Assembly (NCBI GenBank): GCA_963738485.1
Contig: CAVTWK010000005.1
Coordinates: 388,690 to 452,689, forward strand
Reading direction: 5' to 3'
Length of the DNA stretch: 64,000 bases
DNA from: an uncultured Acidobacteriota bacterium
GTDB lineage: Bacteria > Acidobacteriota > Vicinamibacteria > Vicinamibacterales > SCN-69-37
Position 1 is the stretch's first letter. Every line of letters begins with the position of its first letter. The translations under genes and the position numbers were made by a program. The notes under the pieces were generated by a model. It was not told where the DNA came from. It did not search any database and was given only the letters and a program-made list of their open reading frames with translations. Shown in pieces: positions 7,578-57,088 of this stretch.

Positions 7578-7648
7578 TCTAGAATCACCTCGGAGGTAAT
7601 TGCTACCAAGGTTGTCATCGTCGGCCCGACCACCTCCGAGGTCCTAGA
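7578..7648. promoter_or_regulatory. inverted repeat in divergent intergenic region (possible operator or structured leader)
   Basis: TCTAGAATCACCTCGGAGGT ...34 nt... ACCTCCGAGGTCCTAGA. It shares the ACCTC(C/G)GAGGT 11-mer with 35378 and 37901/37967. Confidence 0.35.
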
Positions 7649-34807: not shown

Positions 34808-34993
34808 TCAGGGCTCTGGTACTCCAAGATCCCGACAGATCTTGCGCGCGAGGCTGTCGTTGATTTCGGCGTGGCGGGGCACGGTCGAGCTGCGACGGAG
34901 AGCGGGATTCACGTACACGGAATGTCGGGCCCCTTCGCGCCGCAGCAAACACTTGTGCTCCTCGAGGTGCCGCACAAGCGCCCGTCGCTTCAC
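34808..34993 (-). CDS. hicA: HicA-family mRNA-interferase toxin
   Basis: The 61-aa product MKRRALVRHLEEHKCLLRREGARHSVYVNP...VPRHAEINDSLARKICRDLGVPEP fits the HicA pattern. Local GC is lower than in the flanks. Confidence 0.85.
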   Translation of the reverse strand: MKRRALVRHLEEHKCLLRREGARHSVYVNPALRRSSTVPRHAEINDSLARKICRDLGVPEP

Positions 34994-35211
34994 GCGCCGA
35001 CCTTGATTGGCTCTCGAATGACCTCGCTGCCGCTGGAGGTTTCTTCAATCAGATCGCGATTAGCCTCCAGGAGCAGGGCGATGGCGTCCTGGAGGTTCTC
35101 TCGGGTCTCCTGGAGCGTCGCACCTTGCGTATTTGCCCCTGGCAGCTCCTCGACGAAGCCGATGTAGCCTTCCGGCACCTTCTGGAATACCGCCGTCAGT
35201 TCTAGGGCCAT
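34990..35211 (-). CDS. hicB: HicB-family antitoxin (UPF0150 fold only)
   Basis: MALELTAVFQKVPEGYIGFVEELPGANTQGATLQETRENLQDAIALLLEAN, with a 4-nt overlap with hicA. The ORF-track start at 35253 is less likely. Confidence 0.8.
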   Translation of the reverse strand: MALELTAVFQKVPEGYIGFVEELPGANTQGATLQETRENLQDAIALLLEANRDLIEETSSGSEVIREPIKVGA

Positions 35212-35301
35212 GCCACTATCATACGGTCCGATGTAACTGCCGAACGCGGTCACCTCGCCGTTGCCCTCGGCGTCAAGCGGGTCGCCCCCTGCGTCGATCT
35301 T

Positions 35302-35347
35302 GGGGTCAGACCGGGGTCAGACCATGGTCTGACCCCGGTCTGACCCC
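35302..35347. repeat. perfect 46-bp palindrome (2x GGGGTCAGACC, AT centre, 2x GGTCTGACCCC)
   Basis: ggggtcagaccggggtcagaccatggtctgaccccggtctgacccc, in the divergent hicB / ECF sigma intergenic region. Confidence 0.85.
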
Positions 35348-35417
35348 AGCCGGATGACAACCGCGGTTTCCCAATACCTCCGAGGTATTTGCCCGAGGGG
35401 TTACCATCGCCGCGACC

Positions 35418-36008
35418 ATGACCGACGCGGACGCGACCTGGGACTCGACGCTCACGCTGCTGACCCGGGCGCGGTCTGGCGACCAGGATGCCCTCAGCGA
35501 TCTCTTCGCCCGCTATCTCCCTCTCCTGCGGCGCTGGGCGCGCGGCCGTCTGCCCCGGTGGGCCCGCGATGTGACCGACACGCAGGACCTTGTGCAGATC
35601 ACCTTGCTCCAGACGTTTACGAAGATGGACGGCTTCGAGCATCGAGGCGAAGGGGCATTTCAGGCGTACCTGCGGCAGGCGCTGATGAATCGGATTCGCG
35701 ATGAACTGCGGCGCGCCGGCCGTCGGCCGGCCCCGGCGCCGCTCGACGAGGAGGCGGCCGATCCCGGCCTCTCGCCGCTCGAGGCCGCGATCGGCGCCGA
35801 GGCCGTCGAGCGCTACGACGCCGCGCTCGAACGGTTGACGGCCGCCGAGCGCGAGCTCATCGTCGCGCGCGTCGAGCTGGGGCTGACCTACGCCGAGGTG
35901 GCCGCGGCCACAGGCAAGCCGTCACCGAACGCCGCCCGCATGGCCGTCGTGCGCGCGCTCATGAGACTGGCGGAGGAGATTCGTGACCCAGGCACCCTGG
36001 CTGAATGA
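35418..36008 (+). CDS. ECF-type RNA polymerase sigma factor
   Basis: Region 2 (DTQDLVQITLLQTFTKMDGFEHRGEGAFQAYLRQALMNRIRDELRR) and region 4 (ERELIVARVELGLTYAEVAAATGKPSPNAARMAVVRAL). Confidence 0.9.
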   Translation: MTDADATWDSTLTLLTRARSGDQDALSDLFARYLPLLRRWARGRLPRWARDVTDTQDLVQITLLQTFTKMDGFEHRGEGAFQAYLRQALMNRIRDELRRAGRRPAPAPLDEEAADPGLSPLEAAIGAEAVERYDAALERLTAAERELIVARVELGLTYAEVAAATGKPSPNAARMAVVRALMRLAEEIRDPGTLAE

Positions 36009-37913
36009 CATCGCGGTCGCCCTCGCCGATGGACGGCCCATCGACTGGGCCTCCATCGACGCGCGTCCGCTCACCGAGAGCGAGCGCGGGATGGTCGCGC
36101 GCTTCCGCCTCATCGAGCGTGTCTTGCAGGCGCACATCGGGCCGGATGGGGAGCTGTCGGTCGATTTGCCCAGCGCCCTTGCGACCGCGGACCGCATCGC
36201 AGCCGTGGCCGGGTCGGACGAGGCGGTCGGTGCCACCTGGGGGCCCCTGACGATCCTGGAGCGCATCGGCCGAGGCACCTACGGCGATGTGTATCGCGCG
36301 CACGACCCGCGTCTCGACCGGGTGGTGGCGTTGAAGCTGCTCCGGCGTCGAGAGTCCGGCGGGGACGCGCGCGAATCGGCGGTGATCGAGGAAGGGCGGC
36401 TGCTCGCCCGCGTCCAGCATCCGAACGTCGTCACCGTCCACGGCGCGGAACGGATCGACGGGCGCGTCGGTCTGTGGATGGAGTTTCTCGAAGGCCACAC
36501 GCTCGCCGAGGAAGTGCGCCTGGGCGGACCGCGGTCGGCGCGCGCAATTGCCCGGATCGGCCGCGACCTGTGCAGCGCGCTCACGGCGGTGCACCAGGCT
36601 GGCCTGCTTCACCATGACGTGAAGGCACAGAACGTGATGCGGACGCAGGACGGACGCATCGTCCTGACCGACTTCGGCGCGGGTCACGATTCGCGTGGGA
36701 ACGGCCACGGCGCGGCACCGCAGCCGCTCACCGGCACACCCGCTTATCTGGCGCCCGAGGTCCTCGCGGGCCAGCCCGCGACGGCGCAGAGCGAGGTCTA
36801 CAGCGTCGGCGTGCTGCTGTACCACCTGGCGACCGGGACATTTCCCGTGCGTGGACGCAGCCTGCAGGAGTTTCGCGACGCGCATGCGAGTGGCGCCAAC
36901 GTCGAGTTGCTCGCGGCGCGCGCCGACATGCCGCCGGCGCTCGTCGCCGCGATCACGCGATGCCTGGCGCCGGCGCCGGCAGATCGGTTTCAGAACATGG
37001 ACGATCTCGCCGATGCGCTCGCTGCGGGGGTCGAGGTGCCGGCGGCGCACGGCGTCGCGGCGGCGGCGATCCTCGCACCGCGCCGCGCGCGATTCACCTG
37101 GCGCGCGGCGGGGATCGTGCTGGCGTCGGTTGGACTGGCCGGCGCCGCAGGCTGGGCGGCGTCCTACACGCAGCCCGAGATCTTCGAATCAAGGGCTTTG
37201 ATCTACGTCACGCCTCAGCAGGTGTCGCCGGTCTATGTCGGCGCAGAGGGGACGCTGAGGATCGCCGATCGTGTGAACAGCCATCCGCAACAGGATAATG
37301 AGCCGAACGAGATTGGAGATGTTGATCACGGAGCTCAAGCTGTACGAGCCCGAGATGAGCGGGCGGCTGATGGAGGACCGGGTTGAGCGAATGCGTGGCG
37401 AGGTGTCGATAGGGCCGCCCGAGCCGGATCCTGGAAAATCCGTCGACGAGCTCGTTGAGGTGCGCTACATCTCGTCGGATGCGCGCACGGCACAGAAGGT
37501 GACCGACCGTGTGGCCGATCTTGTGATCAACGAGAGCGCCCGCGATCGCGAGAATGCCACCGCGGGAACGGATCAGTTCCTGGAGGCGACCCTGGAGGAA
37601 CTGTCACGCCGCCTCTCAGAGTACGAACAGAAGCTGCGCGTGGCAGGTCGGGGGCGGTCTCCAGATCATGCTTCGAGACCACGAGGAACTGCAGGCGCGC
37701 TACAAGAAGATGTTCGATATGCGGGAGGAAGCGAGGACACGGGCCAATCTGGAACGACGCCAGCTCGGCTCGCAGTTCCGGCTGATCGATGCGGCGCGCC
37801 TGCCCACCACGCCGATCAGCCCGAACCGGCCGCTCTATGCCGGCGCCGGTGCGCTCGGCGGGCTGTTCCTCGGGCTGGGGATCGTCGCGGTGCGCCGACG
37901 ACCTCGGAGGTAA
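35983..37913 (+). pseudogene. Hanks-type Ser/Thr protein kinase fused via TM helix to a Wzz/PCP-like (chain-length-determinant-like) ectodomain; distal part frameshifted
   Basis: Kinase motifs GRGTYGDVYRA, VALK, HHDVKAQNVM, LTDFG and GTPAYLAPE. TM helix FTWRAAGIVLASVGLAGAAGWAA. In the same frame follows YTQPEIFESRALIYVTPQQVSPVYV. SRTRLEMLITELKLYEP... and the PCP C-terminal motif LERRQLGSQFRLIDAARLPTTPISPNRPLYAGAGALGGLFLGLGIVAV are recovered by frame changes near 37281 and 37650. Confidence 0.7.
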
Positions 37914-37985
37914 TTCCTACGAAAACTGTAAGGCCACGCCGCGGCCTTACAGTTTTCGTAGGAATTACCTCCGAGGTGGTTTTCA
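37901..37985 (+). terminator. perfect 35-bp-stem hairpin + GGTTTT between convergent stops (terminator-like; also a repeat-family member)
   Basis: ACCTCGGAGGTAATTCCTACGAAAACTGTAAGGCC acgccgc GGCCTTACAGTTTTCGTAGGAATTACCTCCGAGGT, then ggttttc. The TAA stop of the kinase-PCP gene (37911-37913) lies inside the left arm. Confidence 0.6.
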
Positions 37986-38693
37986 CACGCTCGCCAGCAG
38001 CTCGATCCACCCTTGCGGCAGACGCTCGAGCACGGCTGCTTCGATGATCTTGTCCGTGCCCGTGAGCACGAACAGGCCCATCAGCACGAGCGCCGCGCCG
38101 AACACGACTTTGCCCCGCGAGGCGGCCGCGAGCAGCCGGGGGCGCGCCGCCATCACTCGACGCGACGCATAGGCCGTCACTAACAGCGGCAGCGCCGATC
38201 CGACGCCGAAGGCGAACATCATCACGGCCGCGCGTCCGATCGTCGCGCTCGACGAGGCCAGGCCCACCGCGGCGCCGAGCGTCGGGCCGACGCACGGACT
38301 CCAGATCGCGCCGAGCATCGCGCCGACGCCGAACTGGCCCGCCAGCCCGCGTCCCGCGCCGGCGCTCGACCGTGCCGCCGCGGACGCCAGCGGCGAGAGC
38401 AGCGCCGACAGTCGATCCTGAAGTCGTGCGCTCAACATCACGACGCCCGCCAGCACGAGCATCAGCGCGGCAGCGCGACGAATCCACACATCCGTGAGGC
38501 CGATCGCCGGCCCGAGCGACGCGAGCGCGAGGCCGACGACCGTGAATGACACGACGAGTCCAGCCGCGAGTGCCAACGGCCCGTGCCGCCGGTCCGCCGC
38601 GGCGCTCCCGACGATGATCGGGAGCGCCGGGAGGACGCACGGCGAGAGCGCGGTCAGCAGCCCCGCGACGAAGCTGAGCCCGACCGCGATCAC
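37983..38693 (-). CDS. ccdA: cytochrome c biogenesis CcdA/DsbD-type thiol:disulfide transporter
   Basis: A multi-TM protein with the two conserved Cys motifs LSPCVLPALP and WSPCVGPTLG. Confidence 0.85.
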   Translation of the reverse strand: MIAVGLSFVAGLLTALSPCVLPALPIIVGSAAADRRHGPLALAAGLVVSFTVVGLALASLGPAIGLTDVWIRRAAALMLVLAGVVMLSARLQDRLSALLSPLASAAARSSAGAGRGLAGQFGVGAMLGAIWSPCVGPTLGAAVGLASSSATIGRAAVMMFAFGVGSALPLLVTAYASRRVMAARPRLLAAASRGKVVFGAALVLMGLFVLTGTDKIIEAAVLERLPQGWIELLASV

Positions 38694-39509: not shown

Positions 39510-40106
39510 GTGAACGCGCGCGCTGTGACGCCCGATCAGGAACACCAGTTTGCCGGTCTCATGCGGCTGGCTCAGGGCGGGGACCAGATCGCTTACGCCG
39601 ATCTGCTCTCCGCGCTGACGCCGCTGGCCCGGAGGTACGCGCGCGCGAAACTCGGCGACGTCCCGTGGGTGGACGATGTCGTCCAGGAGACGTTGATGTC
39701 CCTGCACCGCGCGCGGCACACCTGCGACACGACCCGCGCGTTCGCGCCATGGTTCTACGCCGTCGCCTCGAGTCGGCTGATCGACGCCGTCCGCCGCGAA
39801 CGCCGCATCGGATCGCGCGAGCAGGCGTCGGGCACGGCGGGGGAGTTGGCCGCCGCGACGCCTCCCCGTGCGGCTGCGTCAGCACGCGACGAGGTAGACG
39901 TCGAGGCCGTTCGGGCCGCGATGGCCGCGTTGCCCTCGCGGCAGCGCGAGATCATCGCGGGCATGAAGTTCCGGGACGAGTCGGTGCGCGAGGTCGCGTC
40001 GCGTCTTGGCATGAGCGAGTCGGCCGTGAAGGTCACGGCGCATCGGGGCTACCAGGCGCTGAAGCGCCTGCTGCATCGGCCCAGGGGGACGGGACGTGCG
40101 GACTGA
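39510..40106 (+). CDS. ECF-type RNA polymerase sigma factor (NrsF-partnered)
   Basis: Region 2 VDDVVQETLMSLHRARHTCDTTRAFAPWFYAVASSRLIDAVRRERR and region 4 QREIIAGMKFRDESVREVASRLGMSESAVKVTAHRGYQALK. GTG start. Confidence 0.85.
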   Translation: MNARAVTPDQEHQFAGLMRLAQGGDQIAYADLLSALTPLARRYARAKLGDVPWVDDVVQETLMSLHRARHTCDTTRAFAPWFYAVASSRLIDAVRRERRIGSREQASGTAGELAAATPPRAAASARDEVDVEAVRAAMAALPSRQREIIAGMKFRDESVREVASRLGMSESAVKVTAHRGYQALKRLLHRPRGTGRAD

Positions 40107-40753
40107 GGAACTGATCGGGGCCCTGGCCAGCCATGCGACGCCCGTGCGTGTCGTCGCGCCGTGGGGACGACGGCTGGCGGCCTGGTCACTGCTGGCGATC
40201 GGCCTCGCCGGCACGGCGCTTCTCGTCAAGGGCCCCCGGGCGGATTCTGGCGGCCGCCTCGTCCACTGCGCGCTGGCTCGTCGAACTGGTCGTCACGGCC
40301 GGCGTTGGGTTGGGCGCGGCGGGTGCGGCGCTGACGCTCGCCGTACCTGGCCGCGAGCGCGGCGCGGCGACCCGGTGGCTGCCCGTGGCCGCCCTCGCGC
40401 TCTGGACGGGAATCCTGCTCCAGGCCCTCTTCGCGGCCGGGGGGCCGTGGGCCCAGCTGACCGCCGAACCGGCGTATCTGGCGTGCCTGTTCAAGAGCGT
40501 GCTGGTCGGGGCCGTGCCGGCCATCGCAATGCTCGCGATGGTCCGGCAGGCGGCGCCGATTCGGCTGGGATGGACGGCTGGTCTAGGGGCCCTGGCCGCC
40601 TTTGGCATCGGCGCGGCGGCGGCGCAGGTGCTGTGCCCCATCGATCGGCCGGCCCATCTGATCCTCTGGCACCTCCTGCCCGTGGTGGGCCTGTCCGGGC
40701 TGGCCGCCCTGGGCGCCCGACGGCTCCTCGGTTGGAATCACCCCCGATCATGA
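40096..40753 (+). pseudogene. NrsF-family (DUF1109) membrane anti-sigma factor, frameshifted as assembled
   Basis: N-terminus MRTEELIGALASHATPVR, then six TM-like segments. The frame changes near 40246 (LLVKGPRAD | LAAASSTARWLVELVV...). It overlaps the sigma gene by 11 nt. Confidence 0.75.
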
Positions 40754-44425: not shown

Positions 44426-47400
44426 ATGATCAATGTACGTCGTGTTCGAACCCTGCTCGTGGCGCTGTGCCTCGTCGGGGTGGCCCCGCTGTCGGCGGCG
44501 GCCCAGGTCACTACCGGTACCGTGCTCGGGTACCGTGCTCGATCAGCAGGGCGGCGCCATCCCCGGCGCGACTGTTGTGCTCATCAGCGAATCGCAGAAC
44601 ACCAAGTCCGCGCCCGTGGTGACCAGTGCCACCGGTGACTTCATCTTCCCGAACGTCCGACCCGACGTCTACGCCGTCGAGATCTCGATGTCGTCCTTCA
44701 AGACGCTTCGAACGGTCCGGTGTCTCGGTCAGCCCCGGCACCCGCGCCGCCCTTGGCAGCTTGACGCTCGCCGTCGGCGGCACGACCGAAGTGGTCGATG
44801 TGCGCGGCGAGGCGCCGCTGATCCAGTCCACGACCGGCGAGCGCTCGTTCACGGTCGCGACCGACGCGGTGGCGAACCTGCCCATCGCGAGTCGCAACTT
44901 CACCGAGTTCATCAACCTCGTGCCGGGCGTCATCGAGGGCAACCGGGCCGGCGATTCGGCCTCGACTGGCGGCGGCTCGAACAACTTCATGATGGACGGC
45001 GTCGGCACGATGGAACCGGGCAGCAACCGCCTGATGGTCGTCGCTCAACGTCGAGTCGATCGCGGAAGTGAAGGTGCTGACCTCGAGGCTACCAGGCCGA
45101 GTACGGCCGCTCGAGCGGTCTGCAGGTGACCGCGACCACCAAGAGCGGCACCAACCGCTTCCGCGGCTCGCTCTACGACGTCGAACGCAACTCGGACTGG
45201 AACGCGAACACGCAAGACCAACATCCTCAACGGCGATCCGAAGACGACGAGCAAGCAGCGCGACTGGGGCTTTTCGATCGGCGGACCGGTCGGCAAACCG
45301 GGTGGCAGCAACAAGCTGTTCTTCTTCTTCGCGCAGGAGTTTCAGCCGCGGGCAACCGGCAACAACGTCGTGCGCTACCGCATGCCGACCGCGCTCGAGC
45401 GCGCTGGTGACTTCTCGCAGACGACCGACAACAACGGCAACCCGTGGCCGTACATCCGCGACTACCGCGCGACCGGCACGTGCAGCGCCACGACCCAGAC
45501 GTCCTGCTTCGCGGACGGCGGCGTCCTCGGCCGGATTCCGGCGGATCGGCTCTACGAGACCGGGCTGAACATCCTGAAGCAATACCCGCTCCCGAACCTG
45601 ACGAACGTGCCAGCGGGACAGAATTACAACTTCCAACTGACGCGGCCCACCCAGCGCATCACGGCCTCGAAGCCAGTGCTCAAGCTCGACTACCAGGTGA
45701 ACCAGGCGCTGCGCACCTCGTTCAAGTACGCGTCCTGGTCCCAGCCGAAGGTGGCCGTCCTCGGATCGCTCCCGGGCTTCAACGACACCATCATGAACAG
45801 CCCGGTGGTGCCGCTCTGGTCCCTGTCGGTGAACTACAGCCTCACGCCGACGATGTTCCTCGAGGCCAACATCGGACACACCGAGCACGACCAGGCCGGC
45901 TGCGGTCTGAACGGTGACGGCGCCAGCTTCTGCACGGCCGGTTTCCCCGTCAACAGCGTGGCGAGCCGCGCCAACACCGGGCTGCTCAACCTGCCTTATC
46001 TCTTCCCGAACGCCAACATCATCGACCCGTGCGTACTATCAGTACAAGGCGCTCAACCAGGTGGAATCGGCGCCGTGGGACGGCACGCGCATGCTGTTGC
46101 CGCCCAACTTCGGCTTCGGCGGACGGGTCACCAACGCACCGCCCAACAACAGCTACCCGGGCTTTGCCGACCACTCATCGGTCAACGACTACGCGTTCAA
46201 CATCACGAAGCTGGCCGGCCGCCACACGCTCAAGTTCGGCTACTACCAGCAGCGCGCCATCAAGCAGCAGAACCAGGGCGCGCCGTTCGGCACGCTGAAC
46301 TTCAACAACGACGTCAACAACCCGCTCGACTCGCAGTTCCCGTACGCGAACGCCGCGCTCGGGATCTTCCAGTCGTTCGCGCAGTCGTCGAAGTTCATCG
46401 AAGGCACGTGGATCTACAACAACAACGAGTTCTACATCCAGGACAACTGGAGGGTCACCAGCCGACTGACGTTCGACTACGGCATGCGGTTCGTGCACCA
46501 GCAGCCGCAGTACGACACGACAGGGCAGTCGGCCAACTTCATCGCCGACCGTTGGACGCTCGGCGCCGCGCCGGTGCTCTACGTGCCGGGCTGCGTCGGC
46601 GGTGTCTATCCCTGCTCGGGCAGCAACCGTCAGGCGATGAATCCGGTCACCGGCCAGCTCCTCGGTCCGAACACGACGCTGGCGATGGGCGCGCTGGTGC
46701 CCGGATCGGGCAGCACCACCAATGGCCTGTTCCTCTCAGGACAGGGCATCTCGGAAGACCACGTTCGACTTCCCGGCCCTTGGTTATGCGCCCCGTTTCG
46801 GCGCGGCCTGGGACCTGACCGGCCGGCAGCGCTGGGTCATCCGCGGAGGCGGCGGCCTGTTCTTCGACCGTCCGAGCGGCAACTCGGTGTTCGCCCAGAT
46901 CCTCAACCCGCCGACGCTGCAGAACGTCACCGTCCGCTACGGTGAACTGCAGACGCTCGGCAGCGGTGGGCTCTCGACGACGACGCCCCCGTCGCTCAAC
47001 GTCTACGAGCCCGACGCGGCCCTGCCGTCGTCATTCCAGTGGAACGCCGGATCGCAGATGGCCCTGCCGTGGGGGATTGCGCTCGACGTCTCCTACGTCG
47101 GCCAGCGTGGCTACAACATCGTGCAGCCGGTCAACCTGAACGCGGTGGACTACGGCACCGCGTTCCTGCCGAAGTTCCAGGACCCCACGCTCACGCCCAG
47201 CACGACGCCGGGGGCGACGGCGGTCTCGCAGGACCTGATGCGGGCGATCCGCGGCTACAGCTCGATTACGCAGAACCAGGGCTACCTGACCCGCACGTCG
47301 CACACGCTCCAGGTGTCGTTCCAGCGTCGGCTGCGCAACGGCTTCTCGTTCGGGTTCAACGACGTGATCGGTCTCTACGACCGCCAGAACCTGGCGCCCC

Positions 47401-48129
47401 GCCTGCAGCACGACGCCGACGGGACCTTCTTCACGCGCGACGACCAGGACGAGGCCGAGAAGCTCCTGGGCAACAACAACCCGCGCGCCCACGTGATGAA
47501 GGCCAACTTCATCTGGGACCTCCCGGACCTGCGCAAGGAGGGTGGCGCGATGAAGGCGCTGGGACTGGTGATCAACGACTGGCAGCTCTCCGGCATCTGG
47601 ACGGGCGCGACCGGCTCCGCGTACACGGTGTCGGCGTCCTACCAGAACGGCGGCGGCAACGTGAACCTGACGGGGTCGCCCGACTACGGCGGCCGTGTCT
47701 ATGTGGTCGGTGACCCGGGAGAGGGGTGCAGCAGCGATCCGCTGCGGCAGTTCAACCAGCTCGCGTTCGAGGGGCCGATGGTCGGCAGCGTCGGGCTCGA
47801 GTCCGGGAACGGCTACCTGCGCGGGTGCTTCTCGAGCGTGCTCGACATGTCGATTCAGCGGAACATCCGCCTCGGTGGCGGACGGAACATCCAGCTGCGC
47901 GTGGACATGTTCAACGCGCCGAATCAGGCGCGGATCACCGGCCGGAACACGGCGCGTCAGCTTCCCGAATCCCAACACGAACCGGACCACGCCGCAGAAC
48001 CTGCCGTACGACCTGACCACGGGCGACGTGGTGGTCGCGCGGTCGCTGCCGCGCGGCGCCGGCTTCGGCGTGGCGAATGCGTACCAGAATCCGCGCTCCA
48101 TCCAGATGCAGGTGCGCTTCTCGTTCTGA
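44426..48129 (+). pseudogene. Oar-like TonB-dependent receptor (CarboxypepD_reg + plug + barrel), 8 frame disruptions as assembled
   Basis: RBS GGAGGA plus ATG 44426. Signal MINVRRVRTLLVALCLVGVAPLSAAAQ. N-terminal domain GAIPGATVVLISESQNTKSAPVVTSATGDFIFPNVRPDVY. The C-terminus ...NPRSIQMQVRFSF* is the typical TonB-dependent receptor ending. Coding signal hops frames at 44516-44541, and near 44709, 45041, 45087, 45213, 46030, 46754 and 47951. Confidence 0.8.
44516..44541 (+). repeat. perfect 13-bp tandem duplication inside the TonB receptor gene
   Basis: ggtaccgtgctcg ggtaccgtgctcg. Removing one copy restores ...QVTTGTVLDQQGGAIPGATVV... Confidence 0.9.
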
Positions 48130-48190
48130 GTCTGGGGTCAGGTCTTGAATTGACGGTTGGGGTCAGGTCTTGGCCCCGAACGTGACGTCG

Positions 48191-50877: not shown

Positions 50878-50881
<4 letters not shown>
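49526..50881 (+). CDS. membrane protein with Lys/Asp/Ala-rich low-complexity C-terminal half (first gene of MoxR cluster)
   Basis: There are two clear TM helices (FAAGLALVVALVARLAGW, VALLVLGVSGVALLTVILIA) and a third hydrophobic stretch (GALAAAVIAVSIVLPG). These are followed by KDLKKDLKKDAPKDD...-type sequence. Its stop overlaps the MoxR start (TTGA). The start is uncertain (GTG 49526 or ORF-track 49421). Confidence 0.6.
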
Positions 50882-51873
<992 letters not shown>

Positions 51874-51877
51874 CAAC

Positions 51878-52744
51878 GTGCGTTTCGAGGACGACTTTCT
51901 CAAGAAGCTCGAGTATCTGCACGTCGTCTCGCGTCGTGCATTCGCCGGGCAGAACCGCGCCGATCGGATGGCGCGCAAGCGCGGCCGCGGCCTGGAGTTC
52001 GCCGACCATCGGCAGTATTCGGCCGGTGACGACTTCCGCCACATCGACTGGAAGGCCTACAAGCGGCTGAATCGCCTGCTGCTGCGGCTGTTCGACGAGG
52101 AACAGGATCTCCCGATCTATCTCTTCATCGACGCGAGCCAGTCGATGGCTCAGCCCGAGAAGTTCGACCAGGCCCGGCGCATCGCGGCGGCGCTCTGCTA
52201 CATCGGCCTCGCCCACCTCGACCGCGTCACGATCCTGCCGTTCGGCAGCGCCATCGGCGACGAGACCGTGGCGGGTCGCGGCAAGGGCCGCATCTTCCGG
52301 GTCTTCGACATGTTCGAGCGGCTGCAGGCGCGCGGCCAGACGGACCTGAAGGGTACGTTCACCAAGTTCGCGTCGCGAACCCGACAGCAGGGCGTGGCCG
52401 TCGTCATCTCCGACTTCCTCGACCCCGCAGGCTTCGAGCCCGGCCTGAAGCTGCTGGCCTCGATGGGCCACGACGTCTTCGTCGTCCATATTGCCTCGCA
52501 GGCCGACCGTGATCCCGGCGCGCTCGGCGAGGTCCGGTTCGTGGACGCCGAGACGGGCGAGATGCGCGACATCGACGTCACGGCCACATTGGCCGACGCC
52601 TACCGCAGCGCGTGGCTCGCGCACGCCGAGGAGCTGCAGGCGTTCTGCGGCCGGTACAACCTCGGTTTCATCCGCGCCGATGCGGAGGCCCCCTTCGACG
52701 AGATCATCCTGAAGACGTTCCGCCAGGGGCGGTTCCTCGCATGA
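51878..52744 (+). CDS. DUF58 domain protein
   Basis: FADHRQYSAGDDFRHIDWKAYKRLNRLLLRLFDEEQD and LFIDASQSM. Confidence 0.85.
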   Translation: MRFEDDFLKKLEYLHVVSRRAFAGQNRADRMARKRGRGLEFADHRQYSAGDDFRHIDWKAYKRLNRLLLRLFDEEQDLPIYLFIDASQSMAQPEKFDQARRIAAALCYIGLAHLDRVTILPFGSAIGDETVAGRGKGRIFRVFDMFERLQARGQTDLKGTFTKFASRTRQQGVAVVISDFLDPAGFEPGLKLLASMGHDVFVVHIASQADRDPGALGEVRFVDAETGEMRDIDVTATLADAYRSAWLAHAEELQAFCGRYNLGFIRADAEAPFDEIILKTFRQGRFLA

Positions 52745-54495
52745 GCTTTGGGGCGATGGCCGCATGGCAGGCGTGGCTGCTGATCGCGACGGCCGCGGGC
52801 GTGGCCACATGGCTGTTCTACGTCAAGGTGCGACCGCCGAAGATCGCCGTCCCGTCGCTGCTGCTCTGGCGGCGTGTGCTCGACCAGTCGCGGACGCTGA
52901 CCTGGTGGGAGCGTGTGCGCCGCGCCGTGTCGCTTGCCCTCACCATGCTCGTCGCCGTGGCGCTGGCCCTCGCCGTGACGCGTCCGGCCCCGCGCGTCTC
53001 GGCCTCCGCGCGCGGACGGCTGCTGCTCGTGCTGGACTCCTCGTGGTCGATGGGCGCGCGCATGGCCAACGGCCGCACGCGCTGGCAGACGGCCGTCGCC
53101 CAGGCCCGCGCGATGGCGCAGTCGGCCGGTGAAGACGTGGCCCTCGCCACCACGGCCGACGGCCTGGTGGAGGGCCCGACCTCGGACATCGCCCTGGTCG
53201 AGACGGCACTCGAGCGGCTGTCGCCCTCGGGGGGCGATGGGGCCGCCTGGCCGCGCATCGGCGAGGCCGGCGCCGTCCACTTCTTCACCGACGGCGCGAT
53301 CGCCCGCGCGATCGATCCGGCCGTCGTCGTCCATTCCGTGCACCAGCCGGCCGGCAATGTCGCGATCACGGCCTTCAACGTGCGGGCCGCGACGTCGGCG
53401 GCCGGGAAGGCCGAGGCCTACCTCGAGTTCGCGAACTACGCCGTCGGATCGCAAGACGCCAGGTTCACCCTCACGCGGGGGACGGCCGTCGTGCTCGATC
53501 AGCCGGTGACGCTCGCGCCGGGCGAGACAATTCGCCAAGTGGTCCCGCTCGACCTGGCCGGCGATCCGCGATTGCGCGTGCGGATCAGCGCGCCCGAGAA
53601 CGCGCTCGAGGCCGACGACGAGGCCGTCGCCTGGGTCGCGGCCTCGGAGGTTCTGCGCGTCGCGGTCGTGAGTGCTGATCCAGGCGCCCTGGCGACGCTG
53701 CTGCAGCGCGAGCCCGGCGTGCGCGCGACCGTCGTGCCGCCGGGCGGCTATCAGCCCGGCAACGAGGACGTCGTGATCTTCGACCGCACCGTGCCGGATG
53801 CGGCCCCTGGCAAGCCCGCGCTGTTCATCGCGCCGCCGTCGTCGGCCTGGCTGGCGGAGCTGACCGGCGAAGAGCGCACACCGCGCTGGACGACGGCCGT
53901 GGGCCACCCGACGCTCGCGGGCGTCGATCCCCTCAGCGTGGATATTCGCCGCGCGCGGGTCTACCGAGGGGCTCTCACAGCGGTGGCGTCCACCGAAGGC
54001 GGCACCACGCTCGTGGCGGTGGCCGATCGGCCGGACGCCCGGCTCGTGCTGTTGAGTTTCGCGCTCGGCGAGTCGAACCTGCCGATGTCGCCGGTCTTCC
54101 CGGTGCTCATCGGCAACACGCTGGAGTGGTTGGCCAGGCCCGCGCTCGCGTCAACCGGCCGCCCGGGACCCGTCGAGGTGCCGGCGAGCACTCGTCGCGT
54201 GATCGGTCCCGACGGCGCCAACGTCGAGATCATGCGCGCGGGCGAGCGAGCCGTCGTCACGTTGCGCAGTCCAGGCCTCTACCGGGTCGAGGCCGCTGGT
54301 TCGCACAGCGTGGTGGGCGTCAATGTCGGCGCGCCGGACATCTCGAATCTGCAGAAGTCCTCGCTCACCACCGCCTCCGGCATCAGCTTCGCGGGGCAGG
54401 TGACGGGTCGCCCCTGGTGGTGGTACGCCGTGGTCATCGCGTTCGTTCTCGCGGCCATCGAGTTCGCCACCTGGCAACGCCGGATCACGGTCTGA
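52741..54495 (+). CDS. BatA-like protein (N-terminal double-TM aerotolerance-regulator-type segment + VWA-like domain)
   Basis: ATG 52741 overlaps the DUF58 stop (ATGA). AWQAWLLIATAAGVATWLFYVKVRPPKIAVPSLLLW is followed by LLLVLDSSWSM and a C-terminal TM helix. The upstream extension in the ORF track (52612) is spurious. Confidence 0.75.
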   Translation: MSFGAMAAWQAWLLIATAAGVATWLFYVKVRPPKIAVPSLLLWRRVLDQSRTLTWWERVRRAVSLALTMLVAVALALAVTRPAPRVSASARGRLLLVLDSSWSMGARMANGRTRWQTAVAQARAMAQSAGEDVALATTADGLVEGPTSDIALVETALERLSPSGGDGAAWPRIGEAGAVHFFTDGAIARAIDPAVVVHSVHQPAGNVAITAFNVRAATSAAGKAEAYLEFANYAVGSQDARFTLTRGTAVVLDQPVTLAPGETIRQVVPLDLAGDPRLRVRISAPENALEADDEAVAWVAASEVLRVAVVSADPGALATLLQREPGVRATVVPPGGYQPGNEDVVIFDRTVPDAAPGKPALFIAPPSSAWLAELTGEERTPRWTTAVGHPTLAGVDPLSVDIRRARVYRGALTAVASTEGGTTLVAVADRPDARLVLLSFALGESNLPMSPVFPVLIGNTLEWLARPALASTGRPGPVEVPASTRRVIGPDGANVEIMRAGERAVVTLRSPGLYRVEAAGSHSVVGVNVGAPDISNLQKSSLTTASGISFAGQVTGRPWWWYAVVIAFVLAAIEFATWQRRITV

Positions 54496-54496
54496 C

Positions 54497-57088
54497 ATGA
54501 CGATATCGCTCACGGCCCCCGGTGCTCTCTGGCTGCTCGCCGTGATTCCCCTGGTGTGGCTGGCGCGCGCGTATGGCCGCACGAACTTCAACCCGCGACA
54601 GCAGGTGCTCCAGGCCGTCGTCCGGTCGCTGCTGCTCGCGACCCTGGCCATCGCGCTGGCCCGGCCGGTGATCTCGTGGGGATCGTCGCGTCTGTCAGTG
54701 GTCTATCTGGTGGACGTTTCGCACAGCGTGGCCAGCGCCGCCATCACGGGCGCGGCCTCGCGGATCGACGACTTGACGGCCTCGGTGCGACCCGACCATT
54801 CGCGCGTACTGGTGTTCGGCGCCGAGGCCACGGCCGTGGAGAACACCGCGGCGCTGCGCGCCCTGGCGGATCCGGCCACGGCGGCTGATCCGGCCCGGTC
54901 GCCGGTCCCCCGAGAGGGCTCGGACCTCGAGCGTGCGCTGGCCGGCGCCCGCGCGGAGCTTCGGCCCGGTCACCTGCAGCGCATCGTCCTGTTCAGCGAC
55001 GGCCGCGAGACGTCGGGCGACGTGAAGCGCGCGGTGACGCAGCTGGCCGCCGACGGCATCCCCGTCTTCGTCGAACCGATGACGGTGCGTGACCTGGGAG
55101 ATACCTGGGTGGACTCGGTGCAGTTGCCCGCACGCGTCTCGGCCGGCGGTTTCACCGTGGCCAACGTCGTCATTGGCAGTCAGCGAGAGGCGTCGGCCCT
55201 CGTCGAAGTCCGCGATGGCACGCGCGTGCTCGGGACCAAGCAGGCCGTGGTCCTGGCTGGGGCCACCACCGTGCCGGTCGAACTGGCGTTCGATGCGGCC
55301 GGAGCACGCGCCATCGAGGCGACGGTCACCGTGAGCGGCGATCCGCTGGCGACCAACAACACGCTCTCGCGCGAAGTGATCGTGCGGCCCAGTGCAAGGG
55401 TGCTCTACGTGGAGGGCTCGCCTGGAAGCGCGCGCTATCTGCAGGGGGCGCTCACGCAGTCCGGGTTCGACGTCACGGTCGATACGCCAGCGCGCTTGCC
55501 GACGACGCTCGAGCAACTCGATCCGTTTGACGTGGTGATCCTGAGCGACGTCGCGCGCGCCTCGATTTCCCAGGCCGCGATGGTGGCCCTGGCCTCGTGG
55601 GTGGAGGAAGAGGGCGGAGGCCTGCTGGTGGCCGGCGGTGATTCGGTGTTTGGCGAAGGCGCGCCGGGGGATCCGGCCGGGTATCGCAACACCGAACTCG
55701 AACGGCTGACGCCGGTGACGTTTGAGCGCAAGGACCAGCCAGAGGTGGCGCTCATCATCGTGTTCGACAAGTCCTGGAGCATGGCCGGCCAGGTGATGGA
55801 ACTCTGCAAGGCGGCCGCGCAGGCGGCGATTGACGTGCTCGAGGACGAGCATTCATTGGGGGTCGTCACCTTCAATGATGGGCTCACCTGGGACATCACC
55901 CTTCGGAACGTCGGGAAGAATCGCGAGGCGATCCGGAAGACCGTGGCTGCGATCGAGCCGAGCGGCCACACGCTGATCTACCCAGCGGTCGAACAGGCGT
56001 ATCTCGCCCTGAAGGACGCCAAGGCGAGAGCCAAGCACGTCATCCTCATGTCCGACGGCCGCTCCTATCCCGACGACTACGAGACGCTCCTCAAGAAGAT
56101 GGTGGCGGCCAAGATCACGGTGTCGTCGATCTCGGTCGGGCCGGCGGCGGACGCCGAGTTGCTGGGCAACATCGCCAAGTGGGGCAAGGGCCGCGCCTAC
56201 GTCGTGATGGACGCGAAGGAGGTCGCGCAGGTCTTCGTGAAGGAAGCGAAGAACGCGACGACCCCGTCGTTCGACGAGGGCAAGACGATCAAGCCGCTGC
56301 TCAAGGTCAGGGGCTTCTTCGAGGGTGTGGATTTCTCGCGCATGCCCGGCCTGCGCGGACGGACCGCGACCGTGGTCAAGGACAACGCGGTCGAGCTGAT
56401 GGCGACCGAGGAGGGCGATCCGCTGCTGGCCTTCTGGCCCATCGGACTGGGCCGCACCGCGGTCTTCGCCTCCGACGTCAAGGATCGATGGGCCGCGGAC
56501 TGGCTCAAGTGGCGCGGCTACGGACCGTTTTTCTCGGCGCTCATCCGCGCCCTCGAACGGCAGCGACCGCCCACACGCGCGATTGACGTGTCGGTCGGCC
56601 CGTCGCGAGCTGGCGCCCAGTCGGTGGTCGTCGGGCTCGAGGCGCGCGACGGCAAGGGCCAGTATCTGAACCTCCTGAAGCCCGTGCTCGAAGTGCGGTC
56701 GGGCGACGCGGCGCCGGTCACGGTGACCGCTCGCCAGGTCGCCCCGGGTCGATACGAGGCCTCGGTCATTGCCGACGCGAGCCGGTCCCTGGCCGTAACG
56801 CTGGCTGGCGCGACCGGCGCCGACGCGGCGGCGACGTCGCGACTCGTCTTGCCGGACCCCTTCGTCGAGTACCGCTTCCGCGACACCGACGCGACGATGC
56901 TGGCGTCGATTGCGGAATCGAGCGGCGGCAAGATCGCGCCCACGGCTGAGGACGTGCGACGCGAGACGGGCGGTCAGCAGACCGCGCGCCGCGCGCTCTG
57001 GCCGTGGCTGGTCGCCGCCGGGTTCGCGCTGTGGCTCGTCGATGTCCTCCTGCGCCGGGTCCGCGTCTTCGAAGTCGCGTCGGCGTAG
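54497..57088 (+). CDS. large VWA-domain membrane protein (Bat-cluster type)
   Basis: N-terminus LTAPGALWLLAVIPLVWLA, two VWA blocks (VVYLVDVSHSV; LIIVFDKSWSM...ILMSDGRS) and a C-terminal TM helix LWPWLVAAGFALWLV. Confidence 0.8.
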   Translation: MTISLTAPGALWLLAVIPLVWLARAYGRTNFNPRQQVLQAVVRSLLLATLAIALARPVISWGSSRLSVVYLVDVSHSVASAAITGAASRIDDLTASVRPDHSRVLVFGAEATAVENTAALRALADPATAADPARSPVPREGSDLERALAGARAELRPGHLQRIVLFSDGRETSGDVKRAVTQLAADGIPVFVEPMTVRDLGDTWVDSVQLPARVSAGGFTVANVVIGSQREASALVEVRDGTRVLGTKQAVVLAGATTVPVELAFDAAGARAIEATVTVSGDPLATNNTLSREVIVRPSARVLYVEGSPGSARYLQGALTQSGFDVTVDTPARLPTTLEQLDPFDVVILSDVARASISQAAMVALASWVEEEGGGLLVAGGDSVFGEGAPGDPAGYRNTELERLTPVTFERKDQPEVALIIVFDKSWSMAGQVMELCKAAAQAAIDVLEDEHSLGVVTFNDGLTWDITLRNVGKNREAIRKTVAAIEPSGHTLIYPAVEQAYLALKDAKARAKHVILMSDGRSYPDDYETLLKKMVAAKITVSSISVGPAADAELLGNIAKWGKGRAYVVMDAKEVAQVFVKEAKNATTPSFDEGKTIKPLLKVRGFFEGVDFSRMPGLRGRTATVVKDNAVELMATEEGDPLLAFWPIGLGRTAVFASDVKDRWAADWLKWRGYGPFFSALIRALERQRPPTRAIDVSVGPSRAGAQSVVVGLEARDGKGQYLNLLKPVLEVRSGDAAPVTVTARQVAPGRYEASVIADASRSLAVTLAGATGADAAATSRLVLPDPFVEYRFRDTDATMLASIAESSGGKIAPTAEDVRRETGGQQTARRALWPWLVAAGFALWLVDVLLRRVRVFEVASA

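Follow-up and report, generated by a model that had tools for sequence, protein, structure and literature searches.

An ECF sigma factor gene overlapping a gene for a Hanks-type kinase with a polysaccharide co-polymerase-like ectodomain in an uncultured Acidobacteriota bacterium

Gene organisation of the sigma factor/kinase locus

A stretch of 64,000 nucleotides from an uncultured Acidobacteriota bacterium of the order Vicinamibacterales (assembly GCA_963738485.1, contig CAVTWK010000005.1, positions 388,690 to 452,689 of the forward strand; referred to here as the window) was analysed, with attention to two overlapping genes at positions 35418 to 37913. These are predicted to encode an extracytoplasmic function (ECF) sigma factor and a Hanks-type Ser/Thr kinase bearing a periplasmic domain that resembles the polysaccharide co-polymerases (PCPs). 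An earlier interpretation made from the DNA letters alone (the sequence-only reading) had described an ECF sigma factor gene overlapping a gene for a Hanks-type kinase with a PCP-like ectodomain held between two transmembrane (TM) helices, and this layout was borne out by the open reading frames (ORFs), the domain searches and the structural models described below. Both genes lie on the plus strand.

The first gene (35418-36008) encodes a group 4 (ECF) sigma factor of 196 amino acids. The product matched the Pfam families Sigma70_r2 (E = 1.3e-10) and Sigma70_r4_2 (E = 1.5e-7), both above their gathering scores, and the NCBIfam model TIGR02937 (80.3 bits; cutoff 42.9). The best NCBIfam subfamily matches, ShbA and Sig-70_plancto1, were both well under cutoff. 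Region 2.2 of the protein carries the motif DTQD-LVQ. The window sigma factor was 74-75% identical to the sigma factors of two homologous loci (L001 and L003), and DTQD, with a Ser or Thr residue just before it, was found in all three proteins compared. A hexamer, TA[TC]CAT, is conserved 8-9 nt 5' of the sigma ATG in the same three loci (35400-35420 in the window, 7415-7438 in L001 and 1593-1616 in L003), each of which has no Shine-Dalgarno sequence upstream of that ATG; this suggests that the hexamer could be a -10 box positioned for a leaderless sigma mRNA. A scan of positions 35000-38200 with sigma-70 promoter and terminator consensus sequences found nothing.

The second gene, as assembled, is an ORF of 467 amino acids with a GTG start (35983-37386). 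Its first 26 nt overlap the end of the sigma gene (35983-36008), and an overlap of identical length was observed in all six homologous loci that could be interpreted. A Shine-Dalgarno sequence (GGAGGAG) for the kinase gene sits within the sigma codons for AEE. The 26-nt overlap implies that translation of the kinase is probably coupled to that of the sigma factor.

The ORF list contains further plus-strand ORFs in the other two frames, at 37298-38047 and 37554-37913. Three-frame translation placed the peptide PEIFESRALIYVTPQQVSPVYV in the kinase frame (position modulo 3 = 1), SRTRLEMLITELKLYEP in frame 2 and LERRQLGSQFRLIDAARLPTTPISPNRP in frame 0, where it runs to a stop codon at 37911-37913. 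The three peptides quoted in the sequence-only reading are thus spread over the three plus-strand frames, as had been stated, and two +1 frame corrections, near 37279 and 37649, are needed to restore the gene. When segments 35983-37278, 37280-37648 and 37650-37910 were joined, a protein of 642 amino acids with no internal stops was obtained, and this corrected protein was used in the analyses that follow.

Domain architecture of the corrected protein

From its N-terminus the corrected protein consists of a small helical module, a Hanks-type kinase domain, a first TM helix (TM1), a periplasmic domain of predicted PCP fold and a second TM helix (TM2). In the full-length AlphaFold2 (AF2) model (pLDDT 87.1), residues 1-50 (35983-36132) form a predicted cytoplasmic three-helix module (pLDDT 79-96) containing the motif ADGRPIDW; residues 59-80 have pLDDT values below 50 and appear to be a disordered tether. 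The kinase domain follows at residues about 85-350 (36235-37032), and a disordered juxtamembrane linker at residues 356-370. Pkinase was matched with E = 6.6e-42 (144.2 bits against a gathering score of 31.7) and all of the catalytic motifs are present, namely GxGxxG (as GRGTYG), VALK, HHD-x-K-xx-N (as HHDVKAQN), DFG and APE, each invariant in the homologue alignment; the protein is a member of the Hanks-type family. The catalytic loop (36610-36633) has HHD in place of HRD, making this a non-RD kinase.

TM1 (residues 373-396, 37099-37170) corresponds in both the AF2 models and the sequence to the hydrophobic stretch FTWRAAGIVLASVGLAGAAGWAAS. The ectodomain is encoded in three pieces. The first, in the kinase frame (37171-37278, PEIFESRALIYVTPQQV...ADRVN), aligns to the model TIGR03007 from model position 11 on. 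The second, in frame 2 (37280-37648, AIRNRIMSRTRLEMLITELKLY ... EYEQKLRVAG), provides the alpha/beta base and a long ascending helix, and the third, in frame 0 (37650-37826), runs from the descending helix through the final beta strand to LPTTPISPNRP, a Pro-rich segment, with a match to GNVR at E = 8e-6. The remainder of the gene (37827-37913) encodes TM2 (residues 615-637) and then a short, basic RRRPRR tail up to the stop codon. The joined protein stops 5 residues past TM2 and gave no P-loop kinase match, and so it has no tyrosine kinase of the BY type, such as marks the PCP-2a proteins.

The ectodomain is predicted to be a shortened polysaccharide co-polymerase

The ectodomain was modelled with AF2 from an alignment of 57 sequences, with the corrected ectodomain of the window as the target. 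In the model (pLDDT 91.7, pTM 0.82), an alpha/beta base, a hairpin of two helices (H132-185 and H191-226) and the last strand lie between TM1 and TM2; the two TM helices flank a soluble domain of 200 residues, which is the two-TM arrangement of PCPs. When the model was compared with the PDB using Foldseek, the top 50 matches were all Wzc, WzzE, WzzB or KpsE, with a probability of 1.00. The best was Wzc (9r62, E = 3.4e-11; also 7nhr), and Wzc, Wzz and KpsE matches had E-values of about 1e-10 to 1e-11; the others included WzzE (8p3p and 8bhw), WzzB (6rbg) and KpsE (8tsh), the last of these with target-normalised TM-scores of 0.53-0.57. A profile of the ectodomain family also matched Wzc by sequence (7e-9). 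On the evidence of these models the ectodomain has a PCP fold, and it is referred to here as a mini-PCP.

The closest relatives by sequence are the chain-length determinants of the XrtA/PEP-CTERM system. TIGR03007, which describes these proteins, matched the ectodomain with E = 1.4e-27 (96.1 bits), in two stretches and with model positions of about 185-420 absent, so that the cutoff of 278.85 bits and the full-length equivalog definition are not reached. A BLASTP comparison with P0281, an XrtA-type PCP of 510 amino acids, likewise aligned ectodomain residues 2-183 with residues 14-188 (41% identity) and residues 191-249 with residues 369-427 (42% identity). The two aligned halves flank a stretch of P0281 with no counterpart in the window protein, and so about 180 residues of distal coiled coil are missing from the latter, which has a short Gly turn instead. 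The Pro-rich motif and the Gly-rich TM2 that typify PCPs are kept (LPTTPISPNRPLYAGAGALGGLFLGLG), with almost no variation among the 57 sequences at P242, P245 and G258 (ectodomain numbering). The mini-PCP thus appears, from its sequence, to derive from XrtA/PEP-CTERM-type chain-length determinants.

The protein was compared with the known classes of PCP. The TIGR03007 proteins share its two-TM topology and are the best sequence relatives of the ectodomain; unlike them, the window ectodomain lacks the distal coiled coil and any cytoplasmic tail past TM2, and the window protein has an N-terminal kinase and is encoded outside a polysaccharide locus. The PCP-2a proteins (Wzc) likewise carry a cytoplasmic kinase on the same chain as a PCP periplasmic fold that two TM helices enclose; their kinase, however, is of the P-loop BY type and C-terminal, whereas that of the window is a Hanks-type Ser/Thr kinase and N-terminal, with a much shorter hairpin and with a sigma factor rather than a Wza/Wzb/Wzy cluster as its partner. 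The comparison with PCP-2a drawn in the sequence-only reading fits only in part: Wzc is the top structural match, and the nearest relatives are the XrtA/PEP-CTERM-type PCPs, less their distal coiled coil. The PCP-1 (Wzz) and PCP-3 (KpsE) proteins resemble the window ectodomain in size, in their two TM helices and in having an alpha/beta base with a helical hairpin, KpsE being the best size-normalised match; they differ in sequence (12-21% identity), carry no signalling domain on the cytoplasmic side, and their genes lie with those for O-antigen, enterobacterial common antigen (ECA) or capsule.

Homologues and conservation of the sigma factor/kinase pair

A database search with the joined protein identified seven intact homologues, each encoded by a single ORF, of 595-648 amino acids and 41-71% identity: P0002 (635 amino acids, 71%), P0003 (648 amino acids, 66%), P0004 to P0007 (625-638 amino acids, 46-48%; P0006 comes from a Vicinamibacterales metagenome-assembled genome) and P0022 (595 amino acids, 41%). 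The window's own shortened product of 467 amino acids is also in the database (P0001), and two fragments (P0121 and P0276) are members of the same kinase-PCP clade. The corrected protein was collinear with the seven homologues from end to end, ungapped at the first junction and with the second falling in a linker of variable length. The kinase-PCP fusion is real and conserved. It is also rare: the distinct sequences number about ten, and all of them seem to come from Vicinamibacterales-like Acidobacteriota.

A gene for an ECF sigma factor of 196-227 amino acids lies directly 5' of the kinase gene in 6/6 interpretable loci (P0003, P0004, P0005, P0006, P0007 and P0022), and a loss of this pairing, which would have counted against the sequence-only reading, was not seen. 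The flanking genes vary (CarboxypepD_reg proteins and an integrase; peptidase M29; a beta-helix protein and PilZ; pyrH/frr and PFK) while the pair stays, which indicates that the conserved unit is an autonomous two-gene module. At 75% identity between the window and L001 or L003, the sigma factor is the most conserved part of the module, ahead of the kinase (64%) and the ectodomain (34-39%).

The locus of P0002 (L002) was left out of the count of sigma pairings, as its contig looks chimeric. Positions 1-1060 of this contig hold a second, diverged ectodomain copy, followed by a gap of about 290 nt and then by only the last 45 or so sigma codons before the kinase gene; either two module copies have been rearranged in tandem here or the assembly is chimeric.

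With respect to the kinase, 93 of the 120 best matches have the N-terminal motif ADGxx[IVL][DNE]W, and carry other ectodomains, such as tetratricopeptide repeats (TPR) and TolB/PD40 propellers. The PCP-fused proteins are thus one ectodomain variant within a large kinase family of the Acidobacteria whose ectodomains can be swapped. HHD sets the PCP-fused clade apart: only nine of these 120 closest kinases have it, and the nine include all eight PCP-fused proteins of the set.

A pattern scan of GTDB genomes with ectodomain alignment A4 recovered nine loci for full-length XrtA-type PCPs and no kinase fusions; the first ectodomain alignment (A3) had been too divergent to yield patterns. No paper on a fusion between a Hanks kinase and a PCP, Wzz or GNVR domain was found in a literature search that left most subscription journals outside its reach.

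Frameshifts in the kinase gene

The first frameshift is a single extra base at about 37279 (GTGAAC-A-GCC), seen as a one-column gap in DNA alignments with both ectodomain copies of L002; once the base was removed the protein alignment was ungapped. The second, also +1, lies at 37649-37654, at or beside a run of five G residues (37650-37654), in the turn of the helical hairpin; its exact base could not be fixed, as the site is a variable linker in the homologues.

As assembled, the three frames are distinct ORFs, and they could be taken for a kinase gene followed by one or two small, separate PCP-like genes with no fusion at all. This reading, to which we give next to no credence, was rejected on the alignment with the homologues, all seven of which have kinase and ectodomain in one unbroken ORF; moreover, the breaks fall in the middle of secondary-structure elements of one domain in the AF2 model, and neither start codons nor ribosome-binding sites lend it any logic. 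As the sequence-only reading had supposed, the locus is one gene and not two divided by a stop. Programmed frameshifting was likewise rejected, since the homologues are encoded in a single frame.

In the window a gene for a TonB-dependent-like outer membrane protein (CarboxypepD_reg and OMP_b-brl_4; 44433-48185, plus strand) is split over frames 0, 1, 2, 0, 1, 2 and 0. Pfam model positions run in order across its pieces, which gives at least five frameshifts, all of them +1. These were found by Pfam mapping of adjacent ORFs, which replaced a window-wide scan for frame switches in GC content at third codon positions (GC3), the latter being too noisy owing to antisense signal. Taken together, at least seven events in two genes or clusters, uniformly +1, point to local insertion errors in the consensus rather than to natural decay, and it is probable that the two frameshifts of the kinase gene are consensus or assembly errors and not real mutations.

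A recent pseudogene is the less likely, though still appreciable, alternative. If the +1 shifts were real, the gene would yield a kinase of 467 amino acids with TM1, about 35 native and about 35 out-of-frame ectodomain residues, or nothing stable, and the sensor would be lost. Such a reading would account for two frameshifts within 370 nt of one gene while most of the long ORFs in the window are intact (many of 800-1150 amino acids are), for the position of frameshift 1 outside any long homopolymer and for the presence in the database of exactly this product from the source assembly (P0001). It is opposed by the absence of other signs of decay in the gene, the corrected frames being free of stops, with a GC3 of 0.78-0.82 like that of intact homologues and with all conserved motifs kept, and by the uniform +1 direction of the events in the window, which is easier to explain by a technical bias towards insertions than by natural mutation. 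When metagenomes were scanned with the full protein, only unrelated kinases of about 34% identity came back, and no near-identical strain in which the frameshift sites could be checked.

The mini-PCP is found on other N-terminal heads

Relatives of the mini-PCP were sought by an exhaustive profile search of 1.84 billion representative sequences, which returned 20,039 proteins at E <= 1e-3; this was needed because a word-index search with the ectodomain alone missed known full-length homologues. The best 150 of the 20,039 fell into four classes: stand-alone proteins of 270-310 amino acids, proteins of 340-395 amino acids with an N-terminal head, full-length PCPs of about 510-560 amino acids matched in two stretches and, as a single case, the kinase fusion (P0003). 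Tandem or multi-copy mini-PCP proteins were also observed (P0128, P0132 and P0161; 654-952 amino acids, with up to nine matched stretches).

Many of the N-terminal heads are HAAS domains. In P0123, HAAS was matched with 27.4 bits against a Pfam gathering score of 27, and its locus has a PadR gene immediately upstream and a second HAAS-Wzz gene downstream. Other heads resemble the permease-prefix domains linked to PadR, with sub-threshold scores. HAAS and PadR form a sensor-regulator dyad able to replace two-component systems (bioRxiv 10.1101/2020.09.24.301986; 10.1101/2025.01.14.632903). The mini-PCP relatives on HAAS heads, encoded right after a PadR gene, are 36-37% identical to the window ectodomain over its full length, and the logic is the same as that of the window, an ectodomain-linked cytoplasmic head controlling a dedicated transcription factor; the HAAS head, however, is helical and non-enzymatic and its partner is a winged helix-turn-helix (wHTH) regulator, PadR, where the window has a kinase and a sigma factor. 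Neither this use of the mini-PCP nor the pattern of +1 errors elsewhere in the window was noticed in the sequence-only reading.

That one ectodomain occurs on several heads, each with its dedicated transcription factor, is the strongest argument for a sensor or transducer role, and the comparison supports such a role for the mini-PCP. A wider proposal, which we regard as doubtful though worth stating, is that the truncated PCP fold is an unrecognised and widely reused bacterial sensor module that informs transcription of the state of envelope glycan assembly by way of at least three interchangeable heads (Hanks kinase/ECF sigma, HAAS/PadR and permease-prefix-like). If this were true, the kinase-fused mini-PCP would be the Ser/Thr-kinase counterpart of PCP/BY-kinase coupling, wired directly to a sigma factor.

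A proposed signalling module and its alternatives

ECF sigma factors paired with a kinase in place of an anti-sigma factor make up an established class, in which the ectodomains vary (PMC7826278, PMC13147305), and the module described here is a PCP ectodomain variant that is new within it. In the ECF43-type pairs (EcfP-PknT of Vibrio parahaemolyticus and EcfK-PknS of Xanthomonas citri), as in the window, the gene for an ECF sigma factor adjoins that for a transmembrane Hanks kinase with no anti-sigma gene, a conserved N-terminal extension precedes the kinase domain and the extracytoplasmic sensor varies (PMC13147305, PMC8999054, PMC7826278). The window shows this context, the kinase gene overlapping the sigma gene with no co-encoded anti-sigma factor and with HicAB upstream and DsbD_TM and thioredoxin genes downstream. 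The ectodomains of the ECF43-associated kinases have reportedly been surveyed by Iyer et al. in 2020. The differences are that ECF43 sigma factors have QTTA or STTA in region 2.2 where the window has DTQD, so that the defining ECF43 motif is lacking, and that ECF43-type kinases have a single TM helix followed by TPR or other domains at the C-terminus, whereas the window kinase has two TM helices round a PCP loop and is non-RD. In the ECF43 proteins EcfP and EcfK, the DAED/DxxD of region 2.2 is swapped for uncharged residues and a phospho-Thr restores the charge (PMC8999054, PMC13147305), while other kinase-associated ECF groups that keep acidic motifs are known (PMC7826278, PMC8999054).

On balance we favour the view that the two genes form a self-contained transmembrane signalling module, consisting of an ECF sigma factor and, translationally coupled to it, a Hanks-type receptor kinase that crosses the membrane twice and has a mini-PCP loop. 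We further infer a signal, an oligomerisation switch, the sigma factor as substrate and a regulon. Obligate oligomerisation in the membrane is a property of PCPs. The mini-PCP would associate with itself, or would dock onto envelope glycan-assembly machinery or a lipid-linked glycan, and a change in its state would affect how close the cytoplasmic kinase domains lie to one another and lead to autophosphorylation. The kinase could then act on its cognate sigma factor, by phosphorylation and/or by release from the N-terminal module, and the sigma factor would switch on its own regulon. The route from envelope polysaccharide status to sigma phosphorylation, suggested in the sequence-only reading, is plausible but unproven; the anatomy on which it was built stands, while the route itself is weakened by the gene context and by the DTQD motif.

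Several observations weigh against this reading. The window protein scored below the Pfam gathering scores for Wzz (PF02706; 17.0 against 25.5) and GNVR (PF13807; 26.1 against 27.7), so that of the domains named in the sequence-only reading the kinase alone was returned above threshold, and the PCP homology is upheld by TIGR03007 and Foldseek; the Wzz gathering score is exceeded by the mini-PCP relatives P0122 to P0124 (27.8-31.8). As assembled, the gene encodes only a kinase cut early in the ectodomain, and the sensor would be dead in this genome if the frameshifts were real. No genes for polysaccharide synthesis, Wzx/Wzy, ABC, XrtA or export proteins flank the module in the window or in the six homologous loci, so that it is homology that links the module to polysaccharide status, and one stand-alone mini-PCP (P0348) is encoded between glyA and a helicase gene with no polysaccharide cluster. 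Neither a phosphatase nor an identified target gene is present at the module. Finally, as DTQD is kept in the three orthologues compared, the phospho-Thr mechanism of ECF43, the one such mechanism so far worked out, is not simply transferable.

The same observations bear on two further alternatives. The Hanks kinase may stand in for the BY kinase of PCP-2a systems, with the mini-PCP joining a ring of full-length XrtA-type PCPs or Wzy, the kinase phosphorylating polysaccharide-assembly proteins and the sigma factor being secondary or merely co-expressed. In known PCPs (Wzz and Wzc structures) the membrane-proximal base and the Pro-rich/TM2 parts mediate oligomerisation and partner contacts, and it is in these parts that the window protein retains 41-42% identity to XrtA-type PCPs, with the fold and the TM pair kept; Wzc also sets a precedent for a kinase and a PCP on one polypeptide. 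We nevertheless consider this quite unlikely, since the sigma factor is the most conserved component and always translationally coupled, the HAAS/PadR heads on the same ectodomain are non-enzymatic and transcription-coupled, which points to transcription as the output, and none of the loci is near a polysaccharide gene cluster.

That last observation would instead agree with an exaptation of the mini-PCP, either as a generic membrane oligomerisation scaffold which arranges the heads in a ring, or as an envelope-stress sensor of membrane or periplasm perturbation, the link to polysaccharide being gone. Kinase-fused, HAAS-fused and stand-alone forms all lack a polysaccharide context, the distal coiled coil, with which Wzc-type systems reach their export partner in the outer membrane, has been lost, and tandem and multi-copy forms exist. 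Two typical features of working PCPs, the Pro-rich motif and the base domain, are strongly conserved, which runs counter to it, and we rate exaptation as unlikely, though less so than the replacement of a BY kinase.

If the module does signal envelope polysaccharide status to the sigma factor, it would bear on a class of regulators that is recognised but poorly understood: only two sigma/kinase pairs have been studied experimentally and little is known of what the kinases sense. With a PCP-fold sensor, one such input, the assembly state of envelope polysaccharide, would become a concrete and testable hypothesis. The retention of an acidic region 2.2 motif means that the mechanism between kinase and sigma factor may differ from the ECF43 paradigm. 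Acidobacteriota are a dominant and little-studied soil phylum with a heavy investment in exopolysaccharide, and the sharing of the ectodomain with HAAS/PadR systems suggests that PCP-derived domains have been recruited repeatedly as sensors in this phylum; their possible use as interchangeable sensor modules is the most interesting lead from this work.

Repeats and neighbouring genes

An inverted repeat with 41-nt arms (95% complementary; dG -76.5 kcal/mol, z = -15.7) lies at 37898-37980, overlapping the stop codon of the kinase gene and followed by UUUU on the plus strand. L002 has a hairpin at the same place after the stop codon, with the same outer arms and a different inner stem, and the repeat is probably the operon terminator, built on a repetitive extragenic palindromic (REP)-like motif. 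The palindrome concerned, ACCTCSGAGGT (often ...GGAGGTAATT), was found five times in the window against an expected 0.05, always in intergenic DNA (7587-7642, 35376-35386 and 37901-37977); two pairs of it form the outer arms of long hairpins, and it looks like a family of REP-like elements. A perfect palindrome of 46 nt, made up of two tandem GGGGTCAGACC units and their inverted copies, lies at 35302-35347, between the start of hicB and the sigma gene, where it may serve as operator or terminator.

Immediately 5' of the sigma gene, and divergent from it, is a pair of genes for a HicA toxin and a HicB-like (UPF0150) antitoxin (34808-35253, minus strand), and further upstream are two VWA-like genes. 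Downstream of the module are, in order, a convergent DsbD_TM gene with a thioredoxin gene, a second ECF sigma factor gene with one for an NrsF anti-sigma factor, and a gene for a NYN-LOTUS protein. The second sigma factor and its NrsF-family anti-sigma factor (39510-40753, plus strand) are a classical pair, only 1.6 kb from the kinase-coupled sigma factor, and the two sigma factors are 29% identical. A run of genes for a MoxR AAA ATPase, DUF58, BatA and a large VWA protein (50878-57088, plus strand) resembles a Bat/aerotolerance-type operon.

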